Shown piece after piece: positions 31,318 to 64,000 of a stretch of 64,000 nucleotides of DNA. The DNA lies in assembly GCA_045837725.1 (NCBI GenBank), contig JBEWZL010000216.1, positions 186,001 through 250,000 of the forward strand. Reading direction: 5' to 3'. The stretch's first letter is position 1; the number at the start of each line of letters is the position of its first letter. The position numbers were made by a program, and so were the translations under genes. The notes beneath the pieces were generated by a model. The model saw nothing but the letters and a program-made list of their open reading frames with translations, did no database searches and was not told the DNA's origin. The DNA comes from Vermamoeba vermiformis. Taxonomy: Eukaryota.

Positions 31318-31692
31318 TGTTTAGCGCTAGAAATAAAAAAGTCTTTGCGAAAGAATCTTCACTTTGCAACTTTACTTCCTATTATGGAATCCAACGAACG
31401 CAAACCTTAGTTTAATAGCTAAGAGCACCGGTCGCATTTAGACGCCGTGACTAAGATTCTGTAATTGCCTTTTATGGTAATATATCCGCATTACGTTAAC
31501 CACTCTCCTACCGAACTATCTTGTGGAATGGAAACCAACCACTTTCCATTTATAGTAATACTGCTGACCAATAGCAAAGCAGCAATAAGTACAGTGCACG
31601 TGCTCATATTAAGTAAGACAAATTGACCACAGTAGAGATCTGGAGTTAGCAAGAGGAAACAGACGTATTTACTTACTTATTACGTTAATACA

Positions 31693-32567
31693 TTACATTA
31701 CTATACATCGAGGTTTTTCTTTCTTAACGGTAACACTAGCTGTTAATGTAACTCTATTTTGTGTATTCGCTTCGTTTTCCAGCATTCGCCTTAAAATACT
31801 TCTAGCAATCATTTGAAGTGCTTGGTCGACATTATAATTTTGTTTAGCACTAATTTCAATAAATTGTACGTCACGCTCTGTCCAATATTCACGGCAGTTT
31901 TGTTCGATGAAATCCAGAATCTCCTCGTTCCGAACTTTTCGGTTGGCTGCATCGTCTGATTTAGTTGCCACAACTAACACTCGCGCGTTTTCCATGGTAT
32001 ATCGATCGATCACCTGCAAATGTTGCATTAAACTGTTGAAAGACTCGCGAGAAGTTACATCCACGGTTACAATAACTCCATGTGCACCTCTAAAAGGACT
32101 AGCACCTATTCTACCAAACCTAATACAATAGCGTGAATTATATGACCGTTTTAATTCTGCTATACCTTTCTTCTTTGTGCTTCCACAGCAGCATTTTGAT
32201 TTTTTATCCGTTTCCGGATCTGTGATAGTTTTTATTTTCTAAAATACATAGTATTAACACTTAATGTCATATTATAATATTTTATAAAGTAGCGCTGCGA
32301 TAAATAAGAATAAATAATTTTTTAAAAATTAATTGTTCAAAAGTCGGATGTGGACTTACTAAATCAGCGTCGAGCTTTTGAAATACATTTACATCAGGTA
32401 TTAATTCTTCTACGACTCGCAATATAAACCACGACTTTCCTGACCCCGGATCGCCCGTTATTACTATCTAAATTGGGATCAGTAGCTGTTTAGTATTACG
32501 TAGTATACTAAAATTCTAATATTACCTTAAATAAGTAATCATGATCTTGATTTGTATTGTGTTGCAT
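31693..32567 (-). CDS. Divergent Rab-like small GTPase (copy 2)
   Basis: DHDYLFKIVITGDPGSGKS; G3 region LLWKHKEE; G4 TKSD; G5 SAK; CaaX CIVM. Confidence 0.85.
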
Positions 32568-32978
32568 TGTTTCAATGAAAAGTAGAATTCCATTAATCCG
32601 TTGTCGTTACAAATTCTTTGGTTGGATGAATTTGTCCGTTAAACGCTATTCTTAGATCTGAGGAAACTCCCTACTGCATCGATTTCGGACCCAGTCCCTC
32701 AGGTTCTCGGCGAACTCCCTGGCTTAATTCATTTCATCATCAAGCGAACCACTGACTTTCCGATATTGGTGCTACGCTTCCTAACATCTATTTCTACTCT
32801 TATTGAAGGAATGTATACTGCTCGACAGGCGCAAGACGGTAGTGTACTTCATAAGACATTAAAATGTTTCCAAACGCAGTGAAGTACCACCAACAACGGG
32901 TATCAAAAAGGGTTAGATCTCCACGACGTGTCATTGTAATGACGTTGTATTTGTCAGTAGTACAATCGAATATATAAT

Positions 32979-33858
32979 TTACATTACTATACACTTTTCT
33001 CTGTCTTTCTTGTTTGATGTTGCCGCAGCGGTTTGAGAATCCAGTTTAAGGCTTCTTAGTATCAGGTTAATTGCTTCCATAATATTGTGATCATTTTTAG
33101 AACTAATTTCTATAAACTGAACGGTTGTATTTCTCCACTCTTCTTTTTGCTCTTGGCCTTGGCGAATCGCATCCAGAATCTGCTCGTTAGACACTTGACG
33201 TTGCGCCAGATCGTCAGTTTTTGACGCCGCTATGACTATTTTGACGTTATCGATGGTGTCTTGATTAACCGTTTTGAACCAATATAGCATCTCGTCTAAA
33301 GATTTGCTCGACGTGACATCCACCAAATACAAAAGTCCATCAGCACCTCGATAACTCGTGTTCAAGGCGCCTCTCCTACATAAACGACGTTATTAAATAC
33401 TTACGTATGATCTGTTCACGTACACTCGATTGATGGACGAAGTATCCCAAAGTTGAATTTTGATCCTTTTATTTGTTTCCGGATCTGTAATTATTTTGGC
33501 TCTCTAAAATAACAAACGATATTAATACAATGGTTTTGCGTCATTTTTGTAATTTTTCGGTCTCGAATTATGCATCCAAGCAAAAAAAAAAATTCTCTTC
33601 TCGACTTACAAAATCAACGGTGAGAGTCGATGGATAATCTTCACGTGGTGCAAGAAATGGTTCGTTTGCAAACCTTCTTAAAAAACTCGTCTTTCCAGAC
33701 TCTGGTTCTCCAATCAAAAGGATCTACAAGAAAACTATTACACAAAACGTCCGTGGTCAGCCATAAATTGCTAATATTGAGGAAATATGGCACTAAATAG
33801 TTTTAAATACCTTGATTGAGTAATCAGGCTCCGCTTGGCTGTGGTTTGGTTGTTCCAT
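32979..33858 (-). CDS. Divergent Rab-like small GTPase (copy 1)
   Basis: ILLIGEPESGKT; IQLWDTSSINR; YRGADG; G4 SKTD; G5 SSK; CaaX CIVM. Confidence 0.85.
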
Positions 33859-35860: not shown

Positions 35861-38800
35861 ATGGAAGATTCGGTAAGCATACCTTACCATGGGGCTGGCC
35901 GCTTGGACTATGATTTATTTTTGAAAAATCAGGGAGTTAACGAATTGAAGAATGCCATTATAGAGGGTACGTATTCTTAGCGTTCATATTATATAAAATA
36001 TTTCCAAATAAAACTGAATCAAATTTAATTTTAGGCAACTTGGCGGATGTGGCTCGCTTGGTTTCAGAAGTCGCTAAGCTCGGTTTAAGCTATTTACAAT
36101 ACGAGCCACTTATTATTGAAGCCCTTAAGACCGAAAATTACGATATTTTAAAGTCAGTTTTGGATGTGGCGTTTGCACGTTACAACAGCAACCCGCTCGA
36201 ATGGACCTTTCGGGTAATTTTAATATTATTTTTAATATTATATATTTTAATAATACTATTTAATTAGCAAACCAAGCTCAAAGATAAGCCAATTGCAGCG
36301 AGAATTATAGCGGATTACATCGTGCAATTCAACTTAAATTTGCTGAACACGCCTTTTGTCGTGGGCGCATTATCGAATAATAATATACTGACGGGTGCAT
36401 TACGTAAGTGACGTAGCGAACGAGAACAAGTTTATTAGCGGTGTTGTTTTTTGGCGCTTGATCTGAAGGATCAGATCCGGATCTAGTCCTGTCAAGTTAT
36501 AATCCTATCCAACTAATTAATCATTGGAAGCTATGCATTAAGCTATTTTCATTTCTGTTCCAATTCATTTCCTATGATTTTCTAAATAACGAAGGGTCCT
36601 ATGAAATTTTTCTAATACAACTGACTCGATTTTAAGTATAATAGGAAAATTTTAAGTTTTGTTTTTTAATAATAGAATAGCCTTTTTAAAACTCGCAATT
36701 AATAACTTGACTTCCTTAGTTCAACTCAAGCGATGCAGTCGTCGCCGTCACAATCATCGAGTGCGGTGGCTCGTGTACATTTTGCACCAATCAGGTGCGT
36801 TGTCCTACGATGATTTGGTGAATGAACCGCGACTTTTGAGTGCGTTGGCTCAATGGCCAGAGATGGACTTGAGCGACTTTTTGCAGGCTCGTGTCAAGCG
36901 CAACGGCGCTGGTAAGTCAAGATCAATCTTATTTAACAGTAATAGTACCTATGAATAGTAAAATTATGATATAATCGTTGCGCGATTCTGTCTGTCAAAA
37001 AAATTAGTTGGATCCGGATGTCAAGATCTGCGTTTGCGGGACCTTAACAACCGACAATACTGTTATTGTGACAAAATTTCTTTACAAATTAAATTTTAAT
37101 TTTTATGTACATTTAATTCATAGTATTCGTAAAGGTTAAATTGGCAAACGAATCTAGATCCGCTAACTTTCGTTACAGATCGCACGTTGTTATACTGCGT
37201 TCTCATTGGCGATAGTCATCTCACGGAAAAATGGAAGTTCGTAAGGACATTGGAGTCTGTTTGCAGCGCAACCAAGCGAGAAGAAGATCTGCCGTACGGT
37301 ATTTTGAATCCGGATCTGACCGAGCTTGCCGCATGTATTATAACACACGAAACAAAGTTATTTGAACACTTTGTGGCAAAGAGCAATTGTCCGCCATTAG
37401 GTAAGTTTAATCAATTTTTGGAGCGACAAAATTAATTTTATTTCCAAATATAGACAAAACGATCGATCACGTGCCTTCGGTCACGTCACCAGCGGGCAGA
37501 AATCTTTCCCATTTTTTCGCCAAATATTGGGGGGCTAGAGATTTCTTCCAAATTGCTTATAAGATAAACTGTGACGCCTTTGATAAGATGTTAATTACAA
37601 GGTAATTTTTTAATTAGGAACGAAAATAATGCAAATTATTAATTCTTTTTGCAATTTTTAGTGACAAACAAGGAAACTATTCCGTGAACGACTTACTTCG
37701 GAATACTCATCCAAAAAAGCTAAACGGTAAGTCACTCAAGAAAAAATGTTTCCTTCAAATCGATTTTTAACGTTCAAATTACTCAGCCGAAGATTTTTGG
37801 AAGTTGATAAAAGCAGTTGAAACGATTATACGGCGAGATCAACACGAGATTGAAAAATTCACGTTCTTTCGTCGAGTCAGACTCTATTGGCTCGATAATT
37901 CATTGGCCTTGTATTTGCATCAAATTGGCTTCAGATATACACGGTTGTTAGAATCAATTGGAAGATGTATGTATGATAATTATTACAGATCCAGATCTGT
38001 TCAAATACCTTTGCTAAAATTTCCGCAAATTACTCTCAATTAATTACCCTTTTACAGACCTCCCACAACCTCCAAGATTGATGTCATTTGCAGCCAGTGA
38101 AATTCCAATAGAATTTCCAATCTATGAGTTACCAATTGATCTGATTGCACTAATCACAGCCAACTTCTCAACAGTGGATGTGTTTGCAATCTTTTGTGTG
38201 TCAAAGAAATGCTCCAAGATGAAGACATTGCTGTTGCAAAGTTCATTTTGGAATCAATACTTCAAAGCAAAAGGACCATTCAAACATGCACAGTACTTGA
38301 ATGTACCAAAAGAAATGCAAAGTGATTATGTTGCTTACCAAAATAGGCAAGTATAGAAAGTACAATGTCCACTACAAATTTGACAGATATTTTCAACTTG
38401 TTAAAAGTTAGACCCTTTGCTGACAATGGCATTTTAGGTTTGAAGTCTGCTTAAAACAAGGACTTACTGCATCAAGAGACCCAAGTCAACCATCTTTAAG
38501 CTGTTTTTTGGATCATATGACAACAGAGGTGATGGATGACAATTGGATCTTGTTGACAGATGGTAGTCCCAACAGATTGAGCTTAATGAACTGTTGGACA
38601 AACAACTTTGATCCACAAACAAAATTCCAAATTAAGCAAGATGAGGGAAACACAGTTGGAAACTTTGTAATTATTAATTCAACACCAACAGACCTGTCAT
38701 TTGGTTACATAGAAAGAAAATCCACCAATGACACATGTACCTGGCATACTTACCAAAATAGGCAACTAAGCAATTGTGTGAGTTTCAAAGCAACTGATAG

Positions 38801-39506
38801 TCAATTGATGAAGCCTATTTATCATAATGGAAAACTTTTCATTAGTATGTTCTTGAAAACTTGCTTGCATTTTGAAATGGACTTACAATTATTTTCTTTA
38901 GAGGGAGGATATTATGACGTCAGATGTGAAGCACCAAGTTTGACTGTGATCCCAAATTGCCATGATGTTCTAGATGTGAATCAATTGACAGGCATGTCTA
39001 TCTTCAGGGACTCAAGCTTTCGGGAATGGATTTTAGTTGACAAATCAGATCAAATTGTCACCAAGTTCTCTGCATTAATCACTTTTTCCTTCAATGGCAA
39101 AATCAGATTTATCAATGAACATTCTCTTGTAGCTTCTTGGAAAAATGGAATATACTTTTTCGACACAAGAAAAATGTCAAAGCAATACATCAATTATATG
39201 CAGACTGAAATTTACGTAAGTACAAAGTTTTAAAAAAATTGTTGAGTGACCTTTTAGTAGGTACCAAATATGGCTGGAGAAGCTGTGTTTAGCCCAACCA
39301 ATCAGTATGCTGTTCTATCAGACTCAGGTGGTGCTCGAACTGTCTGGGACCTTGACTCAAGAAGTTGTGTGAGTGCATTCCACCTCCATCACACAATCAG
39401 AATTTGTGGAATTAACACCAGATTTATGACCACTATGCCATATAGTTCCCCTGGTACAACATTGTACAGTTGGGATAATCAATCAATTGTTGTTGGCCAC
39501 AACTAA
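35861..39506 (+). CDS. Helical/ankyrin-like N-terminus, internal F-box, beta-rich (propeller-like) C-terminus; paralogue A
   Basis: Spliced MEDS|GVNELKNAIIE|GNLADVARLV; F-box IYELPIDLIALITANFSTVDVFAIFCVSKK; collinear with the minus-strand paralogue. Confidence 0.75.
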
Positions 39507-39666: not shown

Positions 39667-42600
39667 TTACTCCAAGCGATTGATTCTCGTTCCAATTGTA
39701 TTATTGCTGCCAGACCCAAAAATGTACTTGCTATTCCATTCAAAAACTGGGGCAAATGAGTCATCGAGGAAAGCACTTTCAAACTCTCTTGAATACAAGT
39801 TCCATACTGCACATATGTCATACTTGCTTTTCAATATTACTCGGTCATTTGCTGCTGAAAAAATGATTTCAGCTGTGTGGAACTGAAGAATAAAATTAGA
39901 GTCTGATTATATTTAACAGAAATTATTAAGCTAATTAGTTCAATGACACGTGAAACGATTTGACACTTAGGGAAATATGACACTTTTGACATGGGAAAAA
40001 TATCTTGTCACTCCTGGAAAGTTTTTGAAAATGTAACAACTTACTTCAATATCAGGCTTTTTTGTGTTTTGAAAGTCTTCAATCGGCAACTTTCGCAAAT
40101 CAAAGTATGATATTCCTTCCTTATCTATGGCAGCAAAACAATGCTCATCAACAAATACGAGTTGACCTGACATCCGTGCATTGCATGATAGCATTATGAG
40201 ATCGTTTTTGTCACTAAAGAACCATTTGGTTGGAGTTGTGTAAGCTGCTACTCCAGTAAGACGATTGACATCCAAGTAAACTTCTTCCCCTTCAAGAAGT
40301 TCAGGAGAGAACTCTGTACAGCTTGGCATTTCACTGTTGAAGTTGTATATAAACTGCCCTATTCAAAAAAAATTCAACTTGTTAAGTGACATTTTTCAAG
40401 CAAATTTTTCCTTGACTTACCCCAGTATATTTTTCCATTGTTAAATATCGATCTTCTTGATAAAATTTCGTGATTAGATTTAAACGGCACACTGGACAGC
40501 TTTGTTCTGTTTCGATATGTATGCCACACATATTCATGTCCCAAGCTTTCAGCAAACCCAAATGTAATGTCTGTTGGCGTTGATTCAATTATAACGAAGC
40601 CTGTTGCTTGTGTTATGTCTTCAGCTTTCAAAGTTACGTATTGTTGCTCAAATGTTTTGTTCCAACAATTTGTCAATGAAATGTTTCGATTTGGTTGATT
40701 TTTCCAGATGATCCAATTATCGTCTAATGCAGTAATTTCTGATTCACCTGGAATATCTTCGACCACTTTCAGCTGCCCTTGTTTTAAGCCACGAGCAAAA
40801 CTAAGGTATTGATTAGAATATCTTCTATCATGTGGATTCATGATTTACTTGCCTATTTTGGTAATCAATGTAAGTTCCACGCATTTCTTTTGGTACAGCC
40901 AAGTACTGAGCATGTTTGAATGGTCCTTGTGCTTTGAAGTATTGATTCCAAAATGAACTTTGCAACAGCAATGTCTTCATTGAGAAGCACTTCTTTGACA
41001 TGCAAAACACTGCAAATATGTCAACCATTGACATGTTGCCTGTGATCAACACAAGAATATCAATCGGCAGTTCGTGGATCGGAAATTCCATTGGAGTTTC
41101 AGTCACTGCAAATTTAAGATTTGGTAAAAGTGGTATTCCTAAATGATGATAATACATTAATGATATTAATATCATTACTAACTATATAGTATATGTTCAA
41201 GAACGTACCAGCTATTTTAAGCAATGAGCGGTGTCTAAATCCCAACTGATATAAAAACAAGCTCAATCCCTTGTCATTGCGATACAATCGGCTTTTACGA
41301 ATAAAAGTTAGCTTTTTGATGTCTTCTTTGTTTCTTCGCACAATAATTGCAACTGCATCGATCAAGTTCTTGAACAACAGGCTGCCTGAAATAGCTGTTA
41401 GTTAAAATAACCCTCGGAATAAATAAAAATACCTAAAAAATGGTGGCCGGAATTCGCTAGAAAATCGTTCACGGAATAATCTCCTTTGCTATCACTGTAA
41501 AAATTACAAGATTAGTCATCTATTTATAGTATTAAGAAATATCTTCTCATTGTACCTTGTTGTGAAAAATTTAAGCCAATGCTTGCGAAGAGATGGAAAT
41601 TGGTTGAAATCTTTTACGCTCGCATATTTTGCAAAGAAATGCGACAAATTTTTTCCAGCAGAGCTGTCAAAGGGCACATGATCAATTGTCGTATCTATTT
41701 TTGGAAAAAATAACATAGTTAGATATCGATTTTTTTTGGCAGATCTGTTAGACGCGGCCAAGATCCCTAAAATTCTAATCTCAACAACGTACCCAATGAA
41801 GGACATTTCTTCGAAATTAGAAATTTGAATAGCCTTATATATTTTCGAACGATGCAAGCTGCCAGCTCGGTCAAATCTGGATTCAAAATGCCTGGCGCTG
41901 CACGAGTCGAAGAGCAAACGCGATCTAGATCCATAACCAAATTCCATTTTTCTTCGTACTTGATGTATGGATTGATTATTACGCAGTAGAGAAGCGTATG
42001 CTCTATTGAACAAAAAGATTAGACCAGGGAAAAGATCCGCTCGACATTTTTTTTTTTCATGAAATGCCTTTTAATTAGTGCATTAATTTATTTAGGATAA
42101 TGAAGACTTACTTGTGCCATAATAATCGACTCTAGCATTTAACACGTCTTTCAGATCCGTTGCGTGGTATCGTACCAAGGCCCTTAACAATCTGGGCTGT
42201 TTGACCAAATCATCGTACGTCAAGACATTTGTTTGGTGCAAAATATATACGAGCCATCGCACGAACTGACGGTTTTTTTTAATTTTTACTGCATTATTTA
42301 GTGGTTAGAAAAAATCTCAAAACGGAACGAATCTACGACTTTTCGAGATCGGACCAAGAATATTTTCGACTTACGTAATGAACCCATCCATGGATAACCA
42401 AAGGCCTTGAAAAATTTTTGGCTCAGAATAAAGTCATCTTTCGATAAATGAGAATGCACCAAGTAAGCTGCGACAATTTGGGCTGCGATCGGTTTGTCTT
42501 TGTACAAGTCGCGATACTATACACGATTAATATCAATCTATATTATTAGTATTTTAAACCTGTAATAGTAAAATACCATAAATAGTCCTTTTAATGAGGG

Positions 42601-48817: not shown

Positions 48818-49302
48818 TGTAATAATTTAATATTTGTGTGTACGATCACCAATTCTTGATCTTGGACTGATTCGGTTCTGTTTGACAGTTTTCATCTGCC
48901 AGCCTGGCTGTCAAAATTTTTACCGGCGAGTCCCCAGACGTACTTCAAATATTCATCCCAACCATCGTACGAACTACTAGTTACTCAAAGATTAATACAA
49001 CACATCTCATAATACAGTCACCGAGATTACCATTCACAGCAAACTCGGATTCGCTCGCGAGTGATCCGTGCTCATGCTCCTCAGCCTCTACCTGTTGCAC
49101 CACTGCTACGCGCAACCAGAAATAGAGCTGGAACCACGTGATGAAAGACTTCCAAAGCACGTGGCTATTATGCGTTAGGTCCCCTTTCTGCGATATTTCT
49201 CAAAACTGGCAGCATAAAAAAAAATTCGGTCGTAAGTTTTATTCATTCAAAACAAAACCGCTTACCACACGCACCATCTACTCTCTACAACCTCTATCAA
49301 CT

Positions 49303-51159
49303 ATGTCTGAACCAAGTGACTTCATTCGTTGGGGATCTATCGAAGGATTGCACCACATTCGCTCTCATCTGGAAAAGGAACGCGATAAGACTACGGGTAT
49401 GGGGGGGCTATACATAAACTTTAGAGGAGTCTAAAACAGGCTTCGAAATTATTTTCTTTATCAAACTCTATAGTCTCTCCATACATATAACCGTATCTTA
49501 AAGCTAAACTTTTCCGATGAGAAAAAATTTGCATTTGTAGAAATCATTTATGAGTTTTGAGCTTTTGAAATTGAGTTGTTAGGGCCTGCGTAATAATAAT
49601 AAGAAAAGGCATCGCTATTTTCGCCGGTGGTGAATTATGAAATTAATTTTGTTTTTTTTGGGGGATGCAGGCGAACTTTTTGCTCCTTACTCTATCATTA
49701 ATGCCCATAACATGACGCTGCGATACCGATCAAAGGTTAAATTGCACGGCATGAACTGCGGTGTTGTGATTAACCAAGGAGAGATCAAGCTCCAGAGCCG
49801 TAACATGTTTATGGATGGATCTGTCCAAGGTACGTCTTAATTGCATATCTTCCTCCTGCAAGTTTGCAACATATGCACGTGCTTTGTGGTGCTTACTGTT
49901 GTATTGTTCAGGAAACAAGCAAAAGGGCAAATTTTTCGGATTCGACGCGTGGGCCCTTAAACAAAAAGATTTCTTTTTGGCGCTTGAAGAACCCATTAGA
50001 AAGCACCTCAAACTCGCCGATGATGCTCTCATCACGTTGTTTGGCGAATGGTGCGGCCCTGCTGTGCAAAAAGGTAAGCTGACGATTTGCCGCCTTTTTT
50101 ATTTGAATCTGATCGACCGTTGGAAATATTCAATTTCTTTTTTTATCCTCATTTATATTATTTTAAAATACTCGACTATACATCAAATAGGAAAAATTGA
50201 TCAATTCCGTTAGCTAAATCCAGTAGCGGATTAACGTTTTTTGTTTATCCGAATATTATTTTAAATAACCATGTTATAGGTGTCGCCCTTAGCAAGCTAA
50301 AGAAGCCCATTTTCGCTCTCTTTGCAGTGCGCGTTAGTACAAACCTCCTGATCGTCGAACCTGAAGCCATCCACAAACTATTGGAATTGTCTTCCAAGCC
50401 TCGTCCAGCTGATCTCTATGTGCTGCCGTGGCACGAGGACTATCGTATGCCCGAGCAGAGCCATCGCGAGATCACTTTGAAGTACGACGACGAAACTAGC
50501 CTCGAGGCAAAGGCAGTCATCATTCAATCAATTGTGGTCGACATTGATCGCGAAGACCCTTGGGTCCGTCGCCAATTCGACGTTAGCGGCGTCGGCGAAG
50601 GATTGGTATTCTATCCTATGAATTTGATTGGTGACGGTACGTATAATCAACGCTCAAACATGCGTGTAAACGCAAGATCCAAATTACTTTTAAAAAATTT
50701 ATTTCAACTTCTCTCGCATTCCAAATCATTAAATAGCGCATATTTTATATACACTATTGATATATTTATTAATTTTCGGTCTCTTTAGATGGTTACATCG
50801 CATCCGAAGTGTTCGAAGCGTTCAGCTTCAAGGCTAAAGGTGCCTCGCATCAAATGACATCAGGCGCGCAATCAAAAGGCATCCAATTGAAGACTCAAAC
50901 TGTTGCATCTCCTCAAGAGTTCGTCGAGTTGTTCTTGACTGTTAGCCGCTTCTCTCAAGGTGTCACCGAGATCACCCTCGGAGACATGTCCGCGCTCGAG
51001 AAATCCAAGTTTATTGATTGGGTAGTCAATGACGTCAAGAAGGAGAGCAAGATTGAGTTAGAGGACAGCAAGTTGAATTGGACCGACGTCGAGCCGCTCA
51101 TTAGAAACAAGGCAGATGCGTGGTTCGACGAGAACATCAAGTTGTCTCCTCAATCGTAA
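49303..51159 (+). CDS. ATP-dependent RNA ligase, Rnl2-like family (5 exons)
   Basis: Motif I KLHGMN, Ia QSRN, III FGEWCG, IIIa FALFAV, IV EGLV, V FKAK, and an Rnl2-like helical C-domain (FLTVSRF...VNDVKKE). Confidence 0.85.
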
Positions 51160-51430
51160 GACTCGTTTATCTATGTTTAATATATTCTCACCAGTTGCTT
51201 AATTAACGCATATTGTAATCGTTCTTATCAATTTATCAAAAAATAAATTCCTTTAAACCGGATTTGCCTTTCTTTCGTGCCAACTGGTGAGAAAAAAACG
51301 ATGTAAATAGGAGTACTCCATACTTATATTACTTGGCAGGGGTTTTAAGAAGACGTTTTCACTGGCTAATAGCTCCTATGTTTCTCCGTTAAAGTCGTCT
51401 TATTCGTCATTACGACTTAGCACATCCGTT

Positions 51431-53843
51431 ATGGTCACCGCTTCTCAAATTCAATCCACTTTATTCGAGAATATGAAAGTGTTCATCTCCGAACGCTTGC
51501 CTTACAAGCAGAAATCTCACTTAACGAAGCTCATCAAGGAACATAGCGGCAACATCATCTTTATGTTCTCACCAGCGAACTGCACTCACGTAGTTGAAGT
51601 CGAAGGCTCGCTGAGTGCATCGAGATTGGAAAAATTAGAGTCTTTTTCGAAGAAAAGCAAGACGCAGGCTCCTGTTGCGTTACCATTCGTTATCAAAGGT
51701 AAGCCAAAAGACCAAACCCTAACCCTAATTTTCGCCACATCCGGGGCTGCTGTAGCTCAGTTGGTAGAGCGGAAAACTTCTATTATCTGGTCGCGGGTTC
51801 AAGTCCCGCCAGCAGCGATTCTTTTAGTTCGCTTTAAATAACCCCAAAACAAAAGTTTTCTCACCCCAATTTCTGTTGCAGATGCGTATTTCCATGATTG
51901 CGTAGCGCAAAATCAACGACTGGCCGAAGAGAAATACCAGCTTTGGGCATTGGCCAAAGGAGTTTTGGCCACTTCAGCTGTCCAAGACATCAAAAAGTGC
52001 GTAGATTTTTGGATTATGTCTGTTTATGTATCAAACTTACAGATCCGGTTTACAGAGACGAAGAAATATTGCCTGCTATTGACCCTGAAGAGGATGGTAA
52101 TATTGTGATCGATCTCGCAGAAGGTGAATCGATTCCAAAGCTCTTTGTATGGAGTTACGGTCAAAAGCGTGAACCGAGTTTTCCGTCAAATTTCACGGTG
52201 ATCAAATACACAATGTTGCACGCCATGGACTTTGAGAATAATAACAATAAGTTCTATTACATGGAGATACAACAAGCACCGAGTGATTTTGAAGGCACGT
52301 TCAAGTACCGCGTGTTCACACATCACGGCAGAACTGACGAGCTGGAGGTCAAGTCCAAAAATATCGGTCAGAAGCAGTGTCGCTATTGTTTCAATGAGCG
52401 CGAGGCACAATTGATCTACTTGAGCATTCTCAAAGAGAAAACAAGCGAAGAAAAAGGCTACAAAACGATTCACTTGTTGTCAATCTCGAATAAGATCGGC
52501 CTTAGTAAGTTTTATTATGGAGTTAATAAGCAACTCAATAACTTTTTTTTCCTCGTAGAATCGATGGAGGTGTCAAGTGTCAAAGTGTCATCAATTGACA
52601 CCGCGCAAGAACAAAGCTCTAAGGCCGACTCGCAGTTGCCAAATCAAATTCAAACACTCGTTAAAGTCCTTTATGACGAGGCCAGTGACGCTTTGAAATC
52701 AGAGTTGCTCGCTCAAGTGACGAACAAAGGTCTCGAAACTCCGCTCGGTATCCTGGCCTTGAAACAGATCGAAAAAGGTACGCTCTAAACGACTCCTAAT
52801 GTATAATAATCTAAATTTCCTAATTAGGCGAGGAGACGTTGATGAAGTTGTACAAATTGTTCAAAGAAGGCAACTCCGACGAAAAGACCTTGTTCAAACT
52901 ATCGAGTCAATTCTATTCGTTGATTCCTCACCGCCTCGGAACAAAAAAGACAGACGTACAAAAGGCTTTGATTAATTCTATGGAATTATTCGCGGAAAAA
53001 CAAAACTTGTTGCAGCTCATGAAAGACATCATTAAAGTCCAACAGAAGCGTGGCAAACAGCTCGATACTAATAGAGGTATGTTATAATCGGCGTTCTTAA
53101 CAAACTCTAACTCTTTTTAGCGGAAATTGATCGCAAGTATGACGCGCTCGACTGCGACATTCAGCCCTTGGACCAGTCCTCATTCGAGTTTGCCGAGCTC
53201 AAGAACAAGCTGATTCAATCGAAGCCTCAGCATAAGGACGATGAAGCTCCTAATAAGTTTGAAGTTGTTAATATCTTCTCTGTGAATCGTTCGGAAGAAG
53301 AACAACAGTTCGCAAGAGAGGTAAGTGTCAAAGTGACAGTTTGACACGTGTCATTGACCCTCCTTTATCAGATGTCAAACCAAAAGTTGCTCGTTCACGG
53401 TTCTCGCGTCGCGAACTTTGTAGGCTTATTGTCCCGCGGTATATTGTTGCCTAAGATCGTGGTCAGCAGAGGTGAGATCCTATCCAGATCCGGTTACAAA
53501 ATTTCACCAATAACCATTTATTATAGGCATGTCCTCGCGCACAGATTTTGGCTACTTAGGCTCGGGCGTCTATTTTTCTGATAATCTCTATGCCAGTATC
53601 AAGTACGCGGCACCCTCCAAAAATGGCAATAGATTCGCTTTGATGACCCTCGTGTCTCTGGGCCGTGCAAAAGAATTCACTAAGATCACTCCTAATTTGG
53701 AAAGAGCTCCTGAAGGCTTTGACAGTTGCATTGGTCTCGCACATAGTTCGCAAAAATCATCGGATTTCATGAACAACGAGTACGTGGTCTACAACGCGTC
53801 GCAGTATAAGAACCAGTATCTTGTAGAGTTTAGATTGATTTAA
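51431..53843 (+). CDS. PARP with BRCT, WGR-like, regulatory and catalytic domains; vault-PARP (PARP4)-like but without VIT/vWA
   Basis: BRCT LFENMKVFISERLPYKQK..CTHVV; WGR-like NNNKFYYMEI..HHGRT; regulatory LSSQFYSLIPH; catalytic HGS..LLSRGILLPK..RTDFGYLGSGVYFSD..SIKY..NEYVVY with the H-Y-E triad intact; stop at 53843. Confidence 0.9.
51746..51817 (+). tRNA. Intronic tRNA-like gene or pseudo-tRNA (nominal anticodon TCT; degenerate anticodon stem)
   Basis: Acceptor stem GCTGCTG/CAGCAGC, D arm GCTC-AGTTGGTA-GAGC, T arm GCGGG-TTCAAGT-CCCGC, TTTT shortly after. The anticodon stem GAAAA/TATCT has 2 mismatches. Lies within intron 51699-51881. Confidence 0.75.
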
Positions 53844-54152
53844 TTAATGAACCCATTTATTAAGTAACGCATCAATTCTTCGTTTTCACGTGACAGCGAG
53901 ATCAAAGGAAAAAGATAATTTTGCGATATTTCTCAGTTCGCCACAACAAAAGAAAATATTATATAACACATAACTTAAGAATTATTTTAAATACACGTTC
54001 CGCAGTATTGATTCGAACCTTAAGGTACGTCCAGCCTTGATACAGATCCTTCTCGGTTAAACATTCTCAATAGTAAAATAACACTTTAAGTTTATTACCT
54101 AATAATTTTTAAAGAAATTTTTGGCATTAAATCATATTAACATAGCACAGAA

Positions 54153-55574
54153 ATGTGGACTTTTCAACTTGGTCACGGATGGGGAGGTCTGCCGCCAACC
54201 AACGTTCACTCATTTGAAATTGCCGAAATTATAGGAGAATATGGAGAATATTTTAAGATAGAATTTGATGCGCGCCATTGGACCGATAAATTATCATTGA
54301 GGCTTGAAGATTCATCTGGATGTCGCCACAACCTGCCTCATTTCTTCAAAGCAGGCGAGCTAAAGACCTTCAATATTATAGTCGATGGGTCTGCAGGAAT
54401 CAGCGAATACTTTTTCACTTGTTCCCTGCACATCTGGCCAAAGGAATTTCCAACACCGATCGCAAAATTCAAATCGCTTTCTACGGTCCAAATAATGCCA
54501 CCAGAATTACGGAAATTTAGCGACACAAGAAAATATACACAGAGTACCCCTAGGCTAAGAACTAGACGAAAAGGCGAAGAAGAATGGAAAGACAGCATTT
54601 TTATGATTTCGTTTACCGGATCCGACGAGATTATCGAAGCGCAGTTCTATGCTACACTTGAAAATGGCAGAATAATTAATAGTCCAATTCTAGAAGTCAG
54701 TTCAATGTGCCGCGAGTTTGATTTTGAAAAAGAATGTCAGATCGACCTCGAAGAAATGAATTTACATCGAAGATTCAATCTTATATTCGACAAAGAGAAA
54801 TTTTATAAGACAGATGTGCTATTCTTATTGAAGAAACTAGAACCTACATATTCAGATGATAATAAGGAAGTTATACTAGGCGGGAGCGGGATCGACTGCG
54901 ATATTATTAAAATTGAGAAAAAACAATTAATCCCTGGAGCCCGTTACGAATTAAAATTGGACGTTAAGACCCTTAGTATATCATATATTAGAATATTTGA
55001 AGTGCCCAGTGATCACCCAATTGACAACGCACTTTGGACAGCCCTCTTTGGATCAGCAGATCGCGTCACTTTTACTCGAAAAGAAGCACAAAAACATCGC
55101 GCAATTACGAGTTTTATTGCACCGATAGGCAGTCTGACAGAAGTTAACATCGAAATAAGCCATATAACGCTATACAAACATGGATTTTATTCCTACAAGA
55201 AGACCTTTCAAGCGTACAAAGAAGCATATCCTGCGCGGGAAAAATCAGATTTTAGCGGCGTTTTTTCGCTATTAGGAACTGATACAACGAATGTACGAAT
55301 CAATTTAACAAAATTATTCAAGGAAAAAGTATCAACTAAGCCAACTATCGAATTATCGCCAGTGGATCTGGCTTACCAAGAAACAAATTCAGCGGCGCTT
55401 TTATTCCCAGAATTATTACGCACGATAGTGCCATATGACAGCGAGAATAAAAAACGGAGCTGCAGACTTGTTTGTAAAAGTTGGTGTTTGGCTCTGGATC
55501 CGACAGCGATTTCAGGTACTGTGACAGCTGAAGCGATAGAGTTATTTAATGTTGTACATAGTCGCGATAAATAA
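54153..55574 (+). CDS. Uncharacterised beta-rich protein with a C-terminal F-box-like motif, paralogue 1
   Basis: 473-aa single-exon ORF; LLFPELLRTIVPY...CRLVCKSW near the C-terminus; collinear with the next gene. Confidence 0.8.
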   Translation: MWTFQLGHGWGGLPPTNVHSFEIAEIIGEYGEYFKIEFDARHWTDKLSLRLEDSSGCRHNLPHFFKAGELKTFNIIVDGSAGISEYFFTCSLHIWPKEFPTPIAKFKSLSTVQIMPPELRKFSDTRKYTQSTPRLRTRRKGEEEWKDSIFMISFTGSDEIIEAQFYATLENGRIINSPILEVSSMCREFDFEKECQIDLEEMNLHRRFNLIFDKEKFYKTDVLFLLKKLEPTYSDDNKEVILGGSGIDCDIIKIEKKQLIPGARYELKLDVKTLSISYIRIFEVPSDHPIDNALWTALFGSADRVTFTRKEAQKHRAITSFIAPIGSLTEVNIEISHITLYKHGFYSYKKTFQAYKEAYPAREKSDFSGVFSLLGTDTTNVRINLTKLFKEKVSTKPTIELSPVDLAYQETNSAALLFPELLRTIVPYDSENKKRSCRLVCKSWCLALDPTAISGTVTAEAIELFNVVHSRDK

Positions 55575-55859
55575 ATAGCAAGGCTATAAAGTCTTAAAAC
55601 ATAAAATTTCAAAAACCGTGTAGATCTCAAACTTGTTGTCGTCTATTGACATTTTTGAATCCAACGCAATTAATTAATTAATGACCAACACAAACACAAC
55701 ATATATATTATAATTTGAGGACCTGCACATTAATCAAGGCTATAAAGTAAGTAGAAGGCCTTCCTGAGATTGGAATACTCGAGTCTTTTTCTGAAATTAA
55801 AAAGAGCGCTAAATTCACCAATAATAATAATAGTAAAATTAATTATTTTAATATTAGTC

Positions 55860-57254
55860 ATGTGGTCATATCGTTTGGGCGCCGGATCGGGACGAAAAGA
55901 CAACAGCACCCACTTCTTTGAAATAACCAAACACATATTAAATGTTGGAGAGTATTATATGATAAAATTTGAAGTTACGAGTCGTGGAAAAGATAGATTG
56001 TCTTGCAAATTAAAAGACGGAGATGGATGTCAACACGATCTGCCTTATTTGTTCAAAAAGGGCCAGCTCGATCAATTTTATATAATCGTAGATGGCGCTA
56101 CAACAGATTATTCGTTCAAATATACAATGGATATTTGGCCAAAAACGCTTCCTGCACCGATCGCAAAATACTGCTCGATCTCAACTGTCCACATTACATC
56201 ACAGTATTCCGGGCAATTAACCACGCCACCTTCTTTCAGATATAGGAAAAAAGGAGAAGAAGATTGGATCTCAACGAACATACCACGGATAACGTTTGAC
56301 GGATGTGACGAAATCTACGAAGCCCAGTTGTTTTACCAGCTACGAAGTGACATTATAGTAGAAAGTCCACTATTAAATGTCGAATGCATGTGGCGCCATT
56401 TTGATATTGAAAAAGAAAGCCAGATCGACCTTGACAAATGGATTTGCAACCAAAGAATTGACATTACCGTAAATTCTGATAGCTTGTATCAAACAAGATA
56501 TGTTGCAACTGTTCGTATGATACATCCATTGGACCATGAAGATTATAACAAAGAAACAAAGATTTTTTCGTTTACGGATGTAGAGGCGGTATCAACCCGT
56601 ACTCCAGTCAAAATGGTCCCTGGAGCAAGTTACGAATTCAAATTGAGCATATTAAGGCCACAAGTATCATTTTGTAGAGTTATTGATGTTCCTTGTTATG
56701 CACCAATAGAAGAAAATTTATGGACAACTCTTTTCGGGGACACGGATCACGTTGCTTTTCAACGAAGAGACTCGCAGTGGATAGAGGGCCCGATCAATTG
56801 GGTATCAGGAGACGCAGAGATGAAAGAGACTAATATAAAAACGAAGATATTGGCTCTATACAAACACGGCACTTATTTGTTCCACTCGACCTTTAAGAGT
56901 TACGTCAACAGCCTTGCGAAAGAATTGTCGTATTTTACTGGCAGTTTTAAGTTGTACAGAATAGACGATACAAAAGCTCGTATTGAATTAACCAAGTCAT
57001 TCCAACAAATACTCCCCTTCAAGCCACCATCACCAATTTTATCGGAGGCAGATCCGACGTTCCAAGCACAAGTCCCATCCGCACTTCTATTACCAGAACT
57101 TATCCAACACATAGCTAATTTTGTAGATTATAACCAGAAGTTGACTAATAGACGCGTGTGCAAGTACTGGTATTCCGTTTTTCAACCAACCATTGTCGGT
57201 ACATTGACCTCAAAGTCAATGCAATTGTTAGATCAAACTTGGACGAAAAAATAA
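55860..57254 (+). CDS. Uncharacterised beta-rich protein with a C-terminal F-box-like motif, paralogue 2
   Basis: ATG at 55860 (MWSYRLG) aligns with MWTFQLG of paralogue 1; LLLPELIQHIANF...RRVCKYW near the C-terminus. Confidence 0.8.
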   Translation: MWSYRLGAGSGRKDNSTHFFEITKHILNVGEYYMIKFEVTSRGKDRLSCKLKDGDGCQHDLPYLFKKGQLDQFYIIVDGATTDYSFKYTMDIWPKTLPAPIAKYCSISTVHITSQYSGQLTTPPSFRYRKKGEEDWISTNIPRITFDGCDEIYEAQLFYQLRSDIIVESPLLNVECMWRHFDIEKESQIDLDKWICNQRIDITVNSDSLYQTRYVATVRMIHPLDHEDYNKETKIFSFTDVEAVSTRTPVKMVPGASYEFKLSILRPQVSFCRVIDVPCYAPIEENLWTTLFGDTDHVAFQRRDSQWIEGPINWVSGDAEMKETNIKTKILALYKHGTYLFHSTFKSYVNSLAKELSYFTGSFKLYRIDDTKARIELTKSFQQILPFKPPSPILSEADPTFQAQVPSALLLPELIQHIANFVDYNQKLTNRRVCKYWYSVFQPTIVGTLTSKSMQLLDQTWTKK

Positions 57255-57494: not shown

Positions 57495-59489
57495 CTACAA
57501 CTGCAATATTTGCAGCTTAGGCAGCTTTGATTTGATTGCGTGATTATCTAACTGATTCTTGTCTTCGATCGGATTGTTCGTCAAAACCAATATTCTGAGC
57601 GATGTAAATTTGGTAGCTTCAATAGTCGAAGAAATACTATTACTGTCCATTTCTAATGATAATAAGTTCGACATCGATGATATCGATCTCCATAGTTCAT
57701 TTGTAACGCTATTTTTGGCGCCGAACAATTTTTCCAAATTAGGAAGGTCCAGATGCGACGGTAATTTTGATATTTTGTTATCGCTGAATGATAATTGCAC
57801 CAAATTCGTTAATTTGTTGATATTTGAATCGATCTCCGTCAAATTATTGCTCGATACATTCAACGAGCGTAAGTTGACCAGCGTGAACACCGCATTTGGC
57901 ACCATTTCAAGTTTGTTACAGCTCAAATCTAAGAACTGTAATAACCTAAAGTCTATATTAGGCAAGTCCTTCAATCGATTTTGAGTCAAAGTGAGTGATT
58001 CAAGGTGTGTCTGTTTGAGCAAAAGTTGCGGAATTTCATCCAGTTGATAGTTTTTCAAGCTGATCTGATTCTTTGGCCAGTAAGTCTGAATACCTCGCGC
58101 AACTATACAATCGCCATATGACTTCTCTAAAATTATTATAATCAGTACAAAATGAACAAGATAAAGTTTTGAAGTTGTTTGGCCGGATTTGTCAAAAAAC
58201 GTACCGTTCATAAAGTCCCAAGCTAAGCGTGGAACGGGAGGTCCTTCGGGCTCGGATATTTTTTGAAACAGCTCCTCGTTCAATTTGTTCAATTGTGGGA
58301 GACGCTGTAAGTTGACCAGATTCGTCAACATCTCGCAGATCAACTCGTCCAAGTCACGCGATTTCGTGTTTATCTTCTCGATCTTTTGAAATACTTCTTT
58401 GAGTGAATGACTAAGTGATTGAAGTGCTTCGAGTTGATCCGCTTCGTTTGACGCAGATCCGGATGTAGATCCGATACTTGACGGAGAGAAAACTAACTTT
58501 AACGCCTCTTCTTGATGCTCTTTCATGAATCCCAAGAATATGGATTCAGTGAAAAAGTCTGCAAATGATTTTTGAGTCGTAAAGCATTCAATGAACTGCG
58601 ATACAATCTTCGGAAGTCCAACCGAGAAACTCGAATCAGCAATCGAAATTTCGATCTTTGCAGGTGAAATACTTTCTATAAATAGTGCTATCCAATGATT
58701 AGGACCTCCAGAGACTATAAAGGCATGAAATTTCTTCGTGCCAGCTTTCAACTGTTGGATCGTGCTTGAGATCTCATTTACTCTATCAACTTCCATCAAA
58801 TTGCTATGTAAATATGATAATTCTGGCATAAACGTAATATGCGGCGTTATTTTTTCAAAGTCAGAATGATTTTTGATCAAATATTCGCCATAGCAAGTCT
58901 CCATCACGTGCGAACTGATTTCAGCTTCTGTCCTAAACATAATATTAACCAAAATACTATACTACTATTAATTTTATATACTACACCAGAGATAATCGTT
59001 CATAAAATCAACTTGAGCTTGTTCTGGAGCGTTCTGCAGCAAAAATTTATACCAACGATGAAAATCTTGCCAGTAATAGTCTTCATCTATTAAAATATTA
59101 TAATTCGAAAATAATAATAAATAGAAATTAAATGCGACAAGCTTACCGTTGAAATTGACAGTGGAAGTCGGATTTAAGCTCCACTCAAGCCAGATCTTCG
59201 CATTATGAAGCGCGTGATACCCGCACATCGAGCTGCTAGCTTGAGGATAAACAGATAACACATTAATCTGTCAAAATAGGCATTAGTAAGCGAAGGAATG
59301 GCTCGGACAATAAATTGATTTTTTTTTTTGAATTGTCCTGCAATCAGATCGAGTTAAATAGCGTGGAATTAATACGCTACTAGTGATTTGGATTTTATTA
59401 ATTTGCTTTAAAATTTCAGGCTTGTCGTCTAGCAAGAAAACCGAATCTGATCGAGACATCAAGACACGCACCTTACTACTACGTTCCAT
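57495..59489 (-). CDS. Papain-fold (Josephin-like) cysteine peptidase domain fused to C-terminal LRRs
   Basis: Spliced MERSSK|INVLSVYPQASSSMCGYHALHN...NHWIAL...IADSS, then typical LRRs (LQFLDLSCNKL, LRSLNVSSNNL). The LRR call is strong; the peptidase call is a motif-level inference. Confidence 0.75.
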
Positions 59490-60752: not shown

Positions 60753-62415
60753 ATGATATCGAGGTCACTGGTAAGATCGAGGAAAATTAAAACCCCTTCT
60801 ACCCTCAAAAATTAATTAAAAAATCTACGGATAATTATATTGATATATTAAGGATATTTGAGTGGTGTTATATAATAATGGGTTGGTTTAATGCACTAGA
60901 ACAATTTTTTGACTATTTTTTCTAGTTGCTTCAAACCCTGGCACGCGCCACCACGCGACACCCTTCTAAGCGGCCTATTAGTCGTTTATACAGCACCAAT
61001 GGCAATGATAATCCAGCAGAAACACAAACAAACCGCGTACCAAGGTAAGTTAGGCAGAAATCGACAGATGCCCGTTACTTTTTGTAATTCAACGAGCTTA
61101 ATCCTTGATATTATAGGCACTTCTTGGCTATATTTCCTCCAACAATAGCGTTGGATGCGATCGAAAGAGCCCAACAGAAGATCAAGAAGGACATGCCGAG
61201 TAAGTGATTAGAAATCATTGGTTCTTTACACCTAAGTATTGATAACGAGAGTGTATACCATACAATAATATTAAGAATCATTTAAAACTATTAAATCACG
61301 GGATGTCTTAAATCTGCCGAGTTGACGCGTAATAATGCACCTCGCTTGAACGACAAGATTAAATTATTTACTAAAATAATATTTTTAGCGTATGAGCTAA
61401 ATATAATATTGCCCGGGAATAGAATAACTTAAATTTGTGCGTGACGTTTTCAAACACGCGTATCTTTTGAATCAAAGTCCGTGATTTGCGTATTTTTAAC
61501 TTTAGAGAATTGCAGATTCCAAACTACGATGGGTTAGTAGACCGAACATACACTTAACGCTCAAGTTTTTTGGCGCTGCGCTCGCTGATCCAAAGGTTTA
61601 TCGGTATGATCTATTCAACCCCCCTTTTGACAGATCTGTCAGATCCAGGCTTACCTGGCATGCTTTCTTTAGGGAAACCACACAAATGATAGACGAGGTC
61701 GTGGCCACCATGGACCCGTTCGAAATTGAAGTTAAAACTGCCGGAGTGTTTCCCAGATGGGACAAACCTCGCATTGTAAGTAAATTTAACCGAATTCAAT
61801 TTCGTGAATAGTTCTTAATCCATGTCGGTTGCACGCGCAGCTATGGCTGGGAGTCGATAAAGGCAAAGAGGAGTTGCGAGAGTTGCGAAAAAGATTAGAA
61901 AAAGGCTTCAAAGATCTCGGATTGAAAGAGGAGGCGGGAGAAGAGTCCAAATTCTCACCACATTTCACTATCGGCCGTTGGAACGATGTCTATGTCAAGT
62001 CGTTACAGGTGTCGTACCATTTCCGATTGAATTTGATTTCGAAATTGCTCATCTGGACAGATTCTTCCAGATCTCGACCTAAATCTGGATAAATTTTTAT
62101 TTGTGCATTATTCGTAGGGAGAAATCGCCAAAGACGCGACCGAGACAGTGCAGTACGTTAGCTCCTTTACGGGTAAGCTCTCATATTAAGTTTTTCGGCT
62201 CGATTACTAGATTAGGCCTTGCAACTTTTTACGCGCTGGATCTTACTCCCGGGTAATACTAATCATTTAATATCGATGCAGTACGCGAGACATTATTGAT
62301 CAACAGCGATCTGAATCCAGAAGAGCCGATTTACACTCCCGTGCACTTCTCTCGTACAACCAAGGAGCAGATCGGGATTAGAAGAAGATCTCGATACCAA
62401 CAAGACGGAAGATGA
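60753..62415 (+). CDS. thpR: RNA 2',3'-cyclic phosphodiesterase (2H phosphoesterase, ThpR/LigT type) with a mitochondrial-type presequence
   Basis: Spliced RHFLAI..LRWVSRPNIHLTLKFFG (HxT 1), GVFPRWDKPRILWLGV, FSPHFTIGR (HxT 2), SDLNPEEPIYT; N-terminus MISRSLLLQTLARATTRHPSKRPISRLYS. Confidence 0.85.
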
Positions 62416-62882: not shown

Positions 62883-64000
62883 ATGACTACGTCGCACCAC
62901 GTTACGCTCAAGGACTTGCTGGAGCTTGGTCTGATCAAGAGCGGAGAAGAGATCACGTTCAAAAACGAGCAAGGTAAATTCTCATTTCGTCTTGCTCGGC
63001 TTTTGAGTTTCAGATCGATACCAAGAGCCGATAAAAAGACAAGAGAGAGTGACATTTCCACAAATCTGAATCATTTCTTAGTAAATGATTCTTTCTGGAA
63101 TGACGATCTTTTTGATCTAATCTGACCGATCTGTTTACAGGCCTTATCTCCGACGCTGGTAACATCAATTACAAAGGACGCGACTTCACTTCTTTGTCCA
63201 ATTGGGCTAAGGAGGTTGCTTCCAAGATGGGACTAAGTAAACACTACAATGGATGGAAAGTTGTTTACATCAAGGACAAGCCTCTTTCGTACTTTAGAGA
63301 TCTATTCTATAGCATGAAGGGAGAGGGCAAGCCGATATCAATTACAATGGACGATGAGCCCGTGCTCAAACGAAAGCGGAGTGTTAGTGATATGTCGCAC
63401 AAAAGGCCGCTGATGAGCTTCGCGGATTCTGATGAGGAATTCGACGAAGAATACGACGACGGAGACATGTTTATGCCTCGTAAGCGATTCAGAAGAGACA
63501 GTGTCGCCTCAGCCACAGAGGTATGCTTCCCAAACGAAATAATTCAAGTTGGAGAGGAAATTTCGGAGGTCCGTAGATCTTGATCTAACTTGCTTGCTTT
63601 CAGGTTCGTTCCTTTAGCGCTCCGAATGCCAATGCTTCGACAGTTGTGGCAACCGCAAAGCCTGCTCAAGCTGGCGCGAGTCCCCCAACGGCTGCTCGGT
63701 AAGTTCCATCTTAAGAGATGCGATTGTCGTTTGCGAAAACATCGCCGTTTACCGAAAATTTCGAATCTTTACCATAACTATTGCTAAATCAAGTTGTTCC
63801 CAAGAGAATTATACTTTCGTTCGAGGGATCAAAAGTTGCAATCTAACATACTTGCAAAGGTCTGGAAAGAATAATAGCAAGATGAAGCGCTGCGACATGT
63901 GTGGTACCACGGTAACTCCTCAAGTAAGTCTAAGAGTCCTTTACACCATCTGTGGGTCCAGCTTTTTATCTCCCGCCCCTGGAGATTACTAAAAAAAGAC
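62883..64000 (+). CDS. RAMA-domain protein with the start of a GATA-type zinc finger (partial; runs off the window end)
   Basis: VTLKDLLELGLIKSGEE..GNINYKGRDFTSLSNWA..NGWKVV (RAMA/MPND-like); basic NLS-like stretches; exon ending KRCDMCGTTVTPQ at ~63923. Confidence 0.75.

Follow-up and report, generated by a model that had tools for sequence, protein, structure and literature searches.

The window analysed here, a stretch of 64,000 nucleotides from contig JBEWZL010000216.1 of Vermamoeba vermiformis, is eukaryotic DNA with a G+C content of about 40% and short introns that begin with GT and end with AG. On its forward strand, between positions 49303 and 53843, lie the exons of an RNA ligase of the Rnl2 type followed by the exons of a PARP module resembling human PARP4, and one of the introns of the PARP half contains a tRNA-shaped unit. 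Our analysis suggests that this locus is probably one gene of 13 exons, encoding a protein of about 1048 aa in which an Rnl2-type ligase precedes a PARP4-like series of BRCT, WGR, helical regulatory (HD) and ADP-ribosyltransferase (ART) domains.

The ligase open reading frame (ORF) runs from an ATG at 49303 to a stop at 51157-51159 and consists of five exons, separated by four GT..AG introns that are all in phase 1. Exon 1 (49303-49396) encodes the N-terminus with the family motif W-x-S-I-E-x-L-H, exon 2 (49671-49829) motif I (KLHGMN) with the predicted adenylated lysine, exon 3 (49912-50073) motif III/IIIa (FGEWCGP), and exon 4 (50280-50636) the EDPWV sequence and motif IV (GEGLVFYP). Exon 5 (50789-51155) contributes motif V (FKAKG) and a predicted all-helical C-domain, its unspliced form running into the TAA at 51157-51159. 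All four introns are visible as spliced joints (49396/49671 and those flanking exons 2, 3 and 4) in contigs of run X5, which span 49274-51185 at an identity of ~98-99%; the sample kind of this run is given as “RNA?”, a guess. The conceptual ligase also keeps 46 of the 47 columns that are conserved at 85% or more in 120 family members, KLHGMN, GEW, EGLVFYP and FKAKG included. The intron-containing RNA ligase with motifs I-V, which the original prediction had recognized from the letters of the window, is thus confirmed.

All exon searches against Pfam were made exon by exon. Searched in this way, exons 2 and 3 match PF09414 below the cut-off (E 0.002 and 0.039, respectively), exons 4 and 5 alone give no PF09414 match, and exon 5 gives no match to T4_Rnl2_C. 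A search with exon 4 returned 37 homologues, most of them ~330 aa long and 34 of them carrying PF09414, and a phmmer search with the same exon matched 373 representatives. T4 Rnl2 (2hvq) is matched by the ligase family profile (E 3.5e-13) and by one family member (E 1.6e-7), each match being confined to the nucleotidyltransferase domain and, within it, to the N-terminal part. For exon 5, AF2 predicts a helical structure (pLDDT 85.6). When this model was compared with 48,161 chains using VIA-align, rank 1 was the C-domain of T4 Rnl2 (2hvq_A 251-328), with a middling Z of 7.4, a root-mean-square deviation of 2.8 Å over 73 residues and rank 2 within 1 Z, and Foldseek with the same model found nothing significant (E above 2). 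The model thus speaks for a probable Rnl2-like C-domain. Given the conserved motifs, the match of the family profile to T4 Rnl2 and the tentative similarity of the C-domain model, we classify the protein on its sequence as a ligase of the Rnl2 type whose catalytic motifs are intact and for which nick sealing is predicted. It shares with the T4 Rnl2 family (PF09414) the nucleotidyltransferase motifs, a size of ~330-380 aa and, probably, the helical C-domain after motif V, whereas it differs from T4 Rnl2 in that its gene is eukaryotic, bears introns and is apparently fused to a PARP module. The Atlas clusters nearest to the ligase are mostly from phages.

Downstream of the ligase, eight exons lead from an ATG at 51431 to the stop of the PARP half at 53841-53843. 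Exon 6 (51340-51698) comprises a Ser-rich linker (51340-51430) and then the BRCT domain (BRCT_2, E 8.7e-6), with ATG 51431 inside the exon. Exon 7 (51882-51996), the BRCT-WGR linker, was identified by frame and splice sites and has a homologous exon in L001, a metagenome contig from a relative. Exon 8 (52056-52504) encodes the WGR domain with the motif H-G-R, as seen in alignment with the fusion proteins described below (PF05406, E 3.4e-6, 27.5 bits; cut-off 22 bits). Exons 9 and 10 (52559-52777 and 52828-53076) encode the helical regulatory domain, HD or PARP_reg (PF02877, E 0.028 and 7e-10), and exons 11 to 13 (53121-53320, 53372-53471 and 53527-53843) the ART catalytic domain with its H-Y-E triad (PF00644, E 1.8e-4 and 3.7e-14). 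These matches substantiate the co-oriented BRCT-WGR-PARP coding region that had been proposed.

Compared with PDB, the last exon matches human PARP4 with an E of 8.8e-20, PARP3 with 3e-6 and PARP1 with about 2e-4, so that in this catalytic exon the E-value for PARP4 is about 14 orders of magnitude lower than those for PARP1-3. For the BRCT exon the sole PDB matches are PARP4 BRCT chains, and these are weak (E 0.038). Because the ORF ends right after the ART domain, the PARP half is devoid of the VIT/vWA (ITIH-like) region and of the MVP-interacting domain. The designation “vault-PARP-like” in the original prediction is therefore apt only for the catalytic region, where PARP4 heads the PDB matches, and cannot be extended to the entire protein. 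In the alignment the H-Y-E triad is kept and an Ala occupies the position of PARP4 T484 (PARP1 K903). As this position holds no Lys, the acceptor site would be disabled, which would imply mono-ART activity. Passages in Suskiewicz et al. 2023 define residues 1-575 of PARP4 as BRCT-WGR-HD-ART, and the human enzyme is described, in those parts of Frigon and Pascal (PMC10711553, PMC12212138) that deal with it, as a mono-ART without an equivalent of PARP1 K903. Human PARP4 and the window protein hence have in common the order BRCT-WGR-HD-ART, the H-Y-E triad and a residue other than Lys at the PARP1 K903 site; in contrast to human PARP4, the window protein keeps the G-R of WGR, is without the VIT/vWA and MVP parts and has the ligase at its N-terminus.

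The same or nearly the same combination of domains is found elsewhere. Among the 150 ligase relatives listed, a Pfam scan of the ten most informative ones and further comparisons identified at least three fusions. P0055 (1025 aa; KAH3762714.1, “RNA ligase 2 [Pelomyxa schiedti]”) contains RNA_ligase, BRCT, WGR, PARP_reg and PARP, P0114 (988 aa) a ligase match followed by BRCT, PARP_reg and PARP, and P0051 (839 aa, N-terminally truncated) RNA_ligase, PARP_reg and PARP. Since each of P0114 and P0051 is read without interruption as one ORF from a Logan contig (6844 and 2726 nt, respectively), merging of gene models cannot have produced them. Residues 387-984 of P0114 align to residues 7-565 of PARP4, and both P0055 and P0114 stop directly after the ART domain, as the PARP half of the window does. 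The conceptual fusion from the window aligns end to end and collinearly with all three proteins, its identity to P0055 being 38% over the ligase and 31% over the PARP portion. A quick maximum-likelihood analysis of 134 ligase domains places the window sequence in a clade of six rows (SH-aLRT 98) together with P0055, P0114, P0051, P0135 (a fragment running into a BRCT-like tail) and P0107 (432 aa, with a Ser-rich tail at its end); this grouping concerns the ligase domains. A local hidden Markov model of the PARP side recovered, among 191 proteins, the three fusions plus the fragments P0038-P0042 and no other full-length protein. The latter fragments also form the single close cluster found with the WGR exon (85-91% identical, P0038 91%), and a search with the linker and BRCT exon yielded nothing among 322 candidates. 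The functional link between ligase and PARP, formerly proposed from adjacency, thereby gains support beyond it, because both halves occur together in single polypeptides in three proteins of the closest ligase clade. In the portions of the full-text literature that our searches covered (including PMC2964712, PMC4245714, PMC7824862 and PMC9503650) an RNA ligase-PARP fusion is described nowhere; supplementary domain tables of PARP surveys might list it.

Further fusions were seen in the ligase family, namely P0047, P0069, P0078, P0050 and P0141. Their types are tRNA_bind plus ligase (about 435 aa), DENR_N plus ligase and ligase plus PHD finger, and one of the tRNA_bind plus ligase proteins contains an intein/LAGLIDADG.

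Whether the locus in the window encodes one protein or two depends on the junction between 51155 and 51340. The two halves had been taken for neighbouring genes 272 bp apart. The close spacing is correct, with 271 nt from the stop to ATG 51431, but it is probably composed of an intron of 184 nt and a coding linker of 91 nt. The proposed intron 5 (51156-51339, phase 2) has a donor GTAAGA at 51156 that overlaps the ligase TAA and an acceptor CAG that ends at 51339, both resembling those of the other 11 introns. Joining 51155 to 51340 creates the codon TCG (Ser) and an ORF of 3147 nt and 1048 codons with zero internal stops. Comparison with L001 (1423 nt, with the exons from BRCT up to and including the first of HD; the one locus out of 196 pattern matches in a metagenome scan) supports the linker as coding sequence. 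L001 has GTT at the position of ATG 51431, yet its frame stays open upstream. In the linker 19 of the 29 codons specify the same residue in both sequences, nine of these through synonymous change only, and the nucleotide differences at first, second and third codon positions number 8, 6 and 18 in the linker and 21, 10 and 43 in the BRCT exon. An AG acceptor occurs at the equal place and in the equal phase in both sequences (51338-51339 in the window, 9-10 in L001), so an upstream exon contributing two bases is required. All ATGs within 51160-51339 meet stops at once.

Besides the restriction of the tree to ligase domains, several observations weigh against a single gene. The joint 51155/51340 occurs in no read or contig, and contig 4 of X5, extending from 51014 to 51185, is unspliced across the donor. 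The PARP exons are at almost zero depth in four runs, with only 0.9 and 0.72 in two of 30 bins, and are uncovered in X5. ATG 51431 is in frame and could start a separate PARP. P0055, being an annotated gene model, might in principle merge two genes. Linkage in relatives is seen in the three single-polypeptide fusions but not in bacteria: 48 of 90 pattern matches in genome contigs were confirmed, and all 48 of these bacterial homologue loci are ligase-only, match P0055 no further than residue 394 and have no conserved neighbour. Among the 89 nearest-neighbour ORFs of these loci the commonest Pfam family is Pkinase (3), followed by RlaP (2) and Rnl1 (1); as the bacterial loci are without a conserved partner, context gives no independent functional pointer. 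A fusion-alignment scan of viral contigs gave 0 relatives from 204 pattern matches, and an ESM Atlas search with P0055 gave no usable match.

The unspliced X5 contig, the uncovered PARP exons in that run and the in-frame ATG would suit a scenario of two separate genes, in which the ligase ends with its TAA at 51157-51159 and an own poly(A) site, the PARP starts at ATG 51431, and the adjacency is left over from an ancestral fusion that split recently, or is a coincidence. Stand-alone members of the ligase family, which finish at the equal point of the C-domain, would fit it as well. The coding signature, however, reaches 91 nt 5' of the ATG and is common to L001, which is without that ATG; both splice sites are intact and keep the frame; and the window ligase is nested in the fusion clade. 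We therefore consider two separate genes unlikely. A fusion transcript, in contrast, likely exists in this organism, the splice being deduced from the features described above, and an mRNA for the ligase alone, ending just past its stop codon, probably exists too. A scan of the spacer for sigma-70 promoters and intrinsic terminators gave nothing useful, these being bacterial models that are irrelevant to a eukaryote.

In each of runs X16-18, only 52-69 reads matched, most of them over part of their length and at 95-99% likeness. These runs contain a diverged ligase orthologue, with reads breaking at 50424 into similar but different sequence (50368-50538), and most of their reads would fail the 95% likeness filter. 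Because these runs stem from a diverged orthologue, they say nothing on expression of the PARP half or on co-expression. As a separate observation, the RNA runs X16-18 share one species label with matching DNA, and this label seems to span more than one lineage.

The tRNA-shaped unit (51746-51817, forward strand) lies in the intron from 51699 to 51881 (GTAAGC..GCAG), which follows the BRCT exon. It had been placed in the first intron of a PARP gene; the unit is indeed present, but its host is intron 6 of a gene of 13 exons, because the gap is now read as intron 5 of the fused gene. At the gathering threshold of Rfam the unit is the sole match in the window (RF00005, 59.1 bits), and its counterpart in L001 scores 57.0 bits. 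No Rfam family besides tRNA matches the unit; the vault RNA model (RF00006) hits neither the window (gathering threshold) nor L001 (E up to 1). The acceptor arm and the D and T arms are canonical and include the A and B boxes; 19 predicted pairs are kept between the two sequences, one of them through a compensatory change. The anticodon arm, in contrast, is non-canonical, with a weak AU-rich stem, an A.A or A.G mismatch and a loop of only 6 nt, the sequence of which varies (CUUCUA in the window, CUCUAA in L001). In both cases the Rfam alignment deletes the same single loop position, and ARAGORN reports “tRNA-???” with 2-nt “anticodons”, tc in the window and ct in L001. A TTTT run resembling an RNA polymerase III (Pol III) terminator follows at 51822-51825, 4 nt 3' of the unit, and the heptamer TCTTTTA 3' of the unit is kept in L001. 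The 64 kb window holds one copy.

Between the window and L001 (386-457) the unit is identical at 64 of 72 positions (89%), as opposed to 54-79% in the exons and 32-52% in the unalignable flanks of the intron. Of its eight differences, two make up the compensatory change of the pair G1-C72 to U1-A72, one is the discriminator base and five are in the loop region. A third lineage is represented by P0038 and P0039, which are read-through translations of the intron with the tRNA-like unit at an equal position; the loop region is there beyond the resolution of a protein sequence. Since it is conserved beyond its flanks and has a variable loop of 6 nt, the unit appears to be a tRNA-shaped element under selection that is not a decoder. 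The term “tRNA mimic” in the original prediction suits it well, the unit being the best conserved piece of the locus and its loop non-canonical. One caveat is that only two DNA copies were compared, hence a single covarying pair. Just 5' of the unit, at 51717-51728, intron 6 also contains two telomere-type repeats (CCCTAACCCTAA), which are absent from the L001 intron.

A decaying tRNA pseudogene or a relic of a short interspersed element, without function, could show such an aberrant anticodon arm and an anticodon that ARAGORN cannot name. It could hardly be expected to show 89% identity where the exons show 54-79% and the flanking intron is unalignable, nor changes confined to the loop region, the discriminator base and one compensatory acceptor pair, a kept T-run and one copy in the window. 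We regard this explanation as highly improbable, and consider it likely that the tRNA-like RNA is functional.

A function of the RNA may be entirely its own. tRNA genes inside introns are common, and the unit could be a gene of its own that happens to be nested in this intron, for example one that yields a small Pol III RNA or tRNA fragments or acts as a tDNA insulator. Its arms are so generic that the D and T arms recur without any change in a viral tRNA-Ile, and nothing here ties the unit to the protein. Residence in the equal intron of the equal gene in three lineages argues in the other direction, as does the nature of the host, which combines a member of an RNA ligase family in which tRNA-binding fusions occur with the counterpart of a human module that binds a small Pol III RNA. 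We give an independent nested gene an even chance; that the tRNA-like RNA works together with its host protein is doubtful. Precedents for a small Pol III RNA that accompanies an RNA-handling protein are Y RNA with Ro60/RtcB and the tRNA-like mascRNA. Like vault RNA and PARP4, the window links a small RNA of the tRNA-promoter type to an RNA-binding or RNA-repair protein. Unlike vault RNA/PARP4, Y RNA/Ro60/RtcB and mascRNA, the association is here genomic only, in the form of a nested gene. We could not find in print a ligase-PARP combination with a tRNA-shaped gene in its intron.

For the protein, we propose a “sense-and-seal” enzyme for broken structured RNA. Binding of structured RNA or of 5'-phosphate ends would fall to BRCT and WGR and sealing of nicks with 3'-OH and 5'-PO4 termini to the ligase, and the ART domain would mono-ADP-ribosylate the enzyme itself, a partner protein or an RNA end, as a signal or as a block. 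Human PARP4 is the least understood of the H-Y-E PARPs. According to Frigon and Pascal, its BRCT domain binds vault RNA, a small Pol III RNA (PMC10711553, PMC12212138), which is its sole known nucleic-acid ligand and the binding of which yields no function, and the enzyme favours RNA over DNA in vitro (PMC10711553). The same authors describe the WGR domain of human PARP4, in which F-L-L replaces W-G-R, as thought not to bind nucleic acid, which weighs against a sensing role of this domain.

The PARP1-XRCC1-LIG3 pathway repairs DNA, and the fusion could be its analogue in one polypeptide, with the PARP module sensing 5'-phosphorylated DNA nicks as PARP1-3 do and the ligase sealing nicks in DNA or RNA-DNA hybrids. 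The order BRCT-WGR-HD-ART is indeed that of the C-terminal part of PARP1, PARP_reg/HD is present, and the WGR domain keeps the Gly-Arg at the site where human PARP4 has Phe-Leu-Leu. On the other hand, the ligase belongs to the Rnl2 family of RNA ligases, its relatives are fused to tRNA_bind and DENR_N, and the nearest solved PARP is PARP4, with the in vitro bias towards RNA cited above. In our view a DNA-repair enzyme is possible, though on the less probable side, and for a substrate that is RNA rather than DNA the chances are evenly balanced.

A LigT/ThpR-like gene, placed at 60.7 kb, had also been suggested as a part of the module. The exons of this 2H phosphoesterase, with both H-x-T motifs, lie at about 61506-62000 on the forward strand (LigT_PEase 5.3e-7, 2_5_RNA_ligase2 6.7e-7), i.e., at about 61.5-62.0 kb and ~7.7 kb away from the fusion gene, and its membership finds no support, nor does an antiviral or ribotoxin-responsive role of the module. 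It is not adjacent, because the ORFs 54141-55574, 55755-57254 and 57495-58961 intervene, namely two paralogous ORFs and a leucine-rich repeat gene. No kinase was identified in the selected ORFs of the window that were scanned. RNA repair by Trl1-type tRNA ligase with Tpt1/KptA and a 2H enzyme likewise pairs an RNA ligase with an NAD+-using enzyme of the ART fold; its ligase is of the Rnl1 type, however, and its ART is KptA and not a PARP, and in the window the 2H gene stands apart.

Some other features of the window were recorded. The ORFs 54141-55574 and 55755-57254 (forward strand) are tandem paralogous single-exon ORFs of 477 and 499 aa with C-termini that are F-box-like by eye, and neither has a Pfam match at E up to 0.01. 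Three tandem ORFs at 30340-33389 (reverse strand) resemble by eye Rab/Ras-type small GTPases, and two of them end in CIVM. An ORF at 63116-63583 (forward strand) matches RAMA (restriction enzyme adenine methylase associated) at E 5.9e-7 but, with 29.8 bits, stays under the cut-off of 35.2. The ORFs 38424-39233 (forward strand) and 39967-40844 (reverse strand) share blocks by eye (“TNCW..F”, “TPTD..FG”, “WHTY.NR”) and appear to form a local paralogue family.

In its most far-reaching form, the proposal would unite protein and RNA in a self-contained RNA-surveillance particle. The intronic tRNA-like RNA would be a dedicated partner of the fusion, made together with the host mRNA and comparable to vault RNA in its relation to PARP4. 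The role of the intronic RNA would be that of a sentinel or decoy tRNA without decoding function, the loop of which is cut by anticodon nucleases, after which the break would be sensed by BRCT and WGR, mono-ADP-ribosylated and resealed by the ligase. We consider this scenario improbable as a whole; if it were true, sensing of RNA breaks would be the ancestral job of the vault-PARP clade.

At the locus itself, an Rnl2-type ligase has been domesticated in a eukaryote, where it bears introns and is expressed, and the conserved non-decoding tRNA-like RNA has a role that is open to direct testing. The fusion offers a simple recombinant system in which one polypeptide would sense nicks and seal them as well as ADP-ribosylate RNA ends. 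Beyond this organism, the repeated natural fusion of BRCT-WGR-HD-ART to an intact RNA ligase may serve as “Rosetta-stone” evidence that the PARP4 clade acts on broken RNA.

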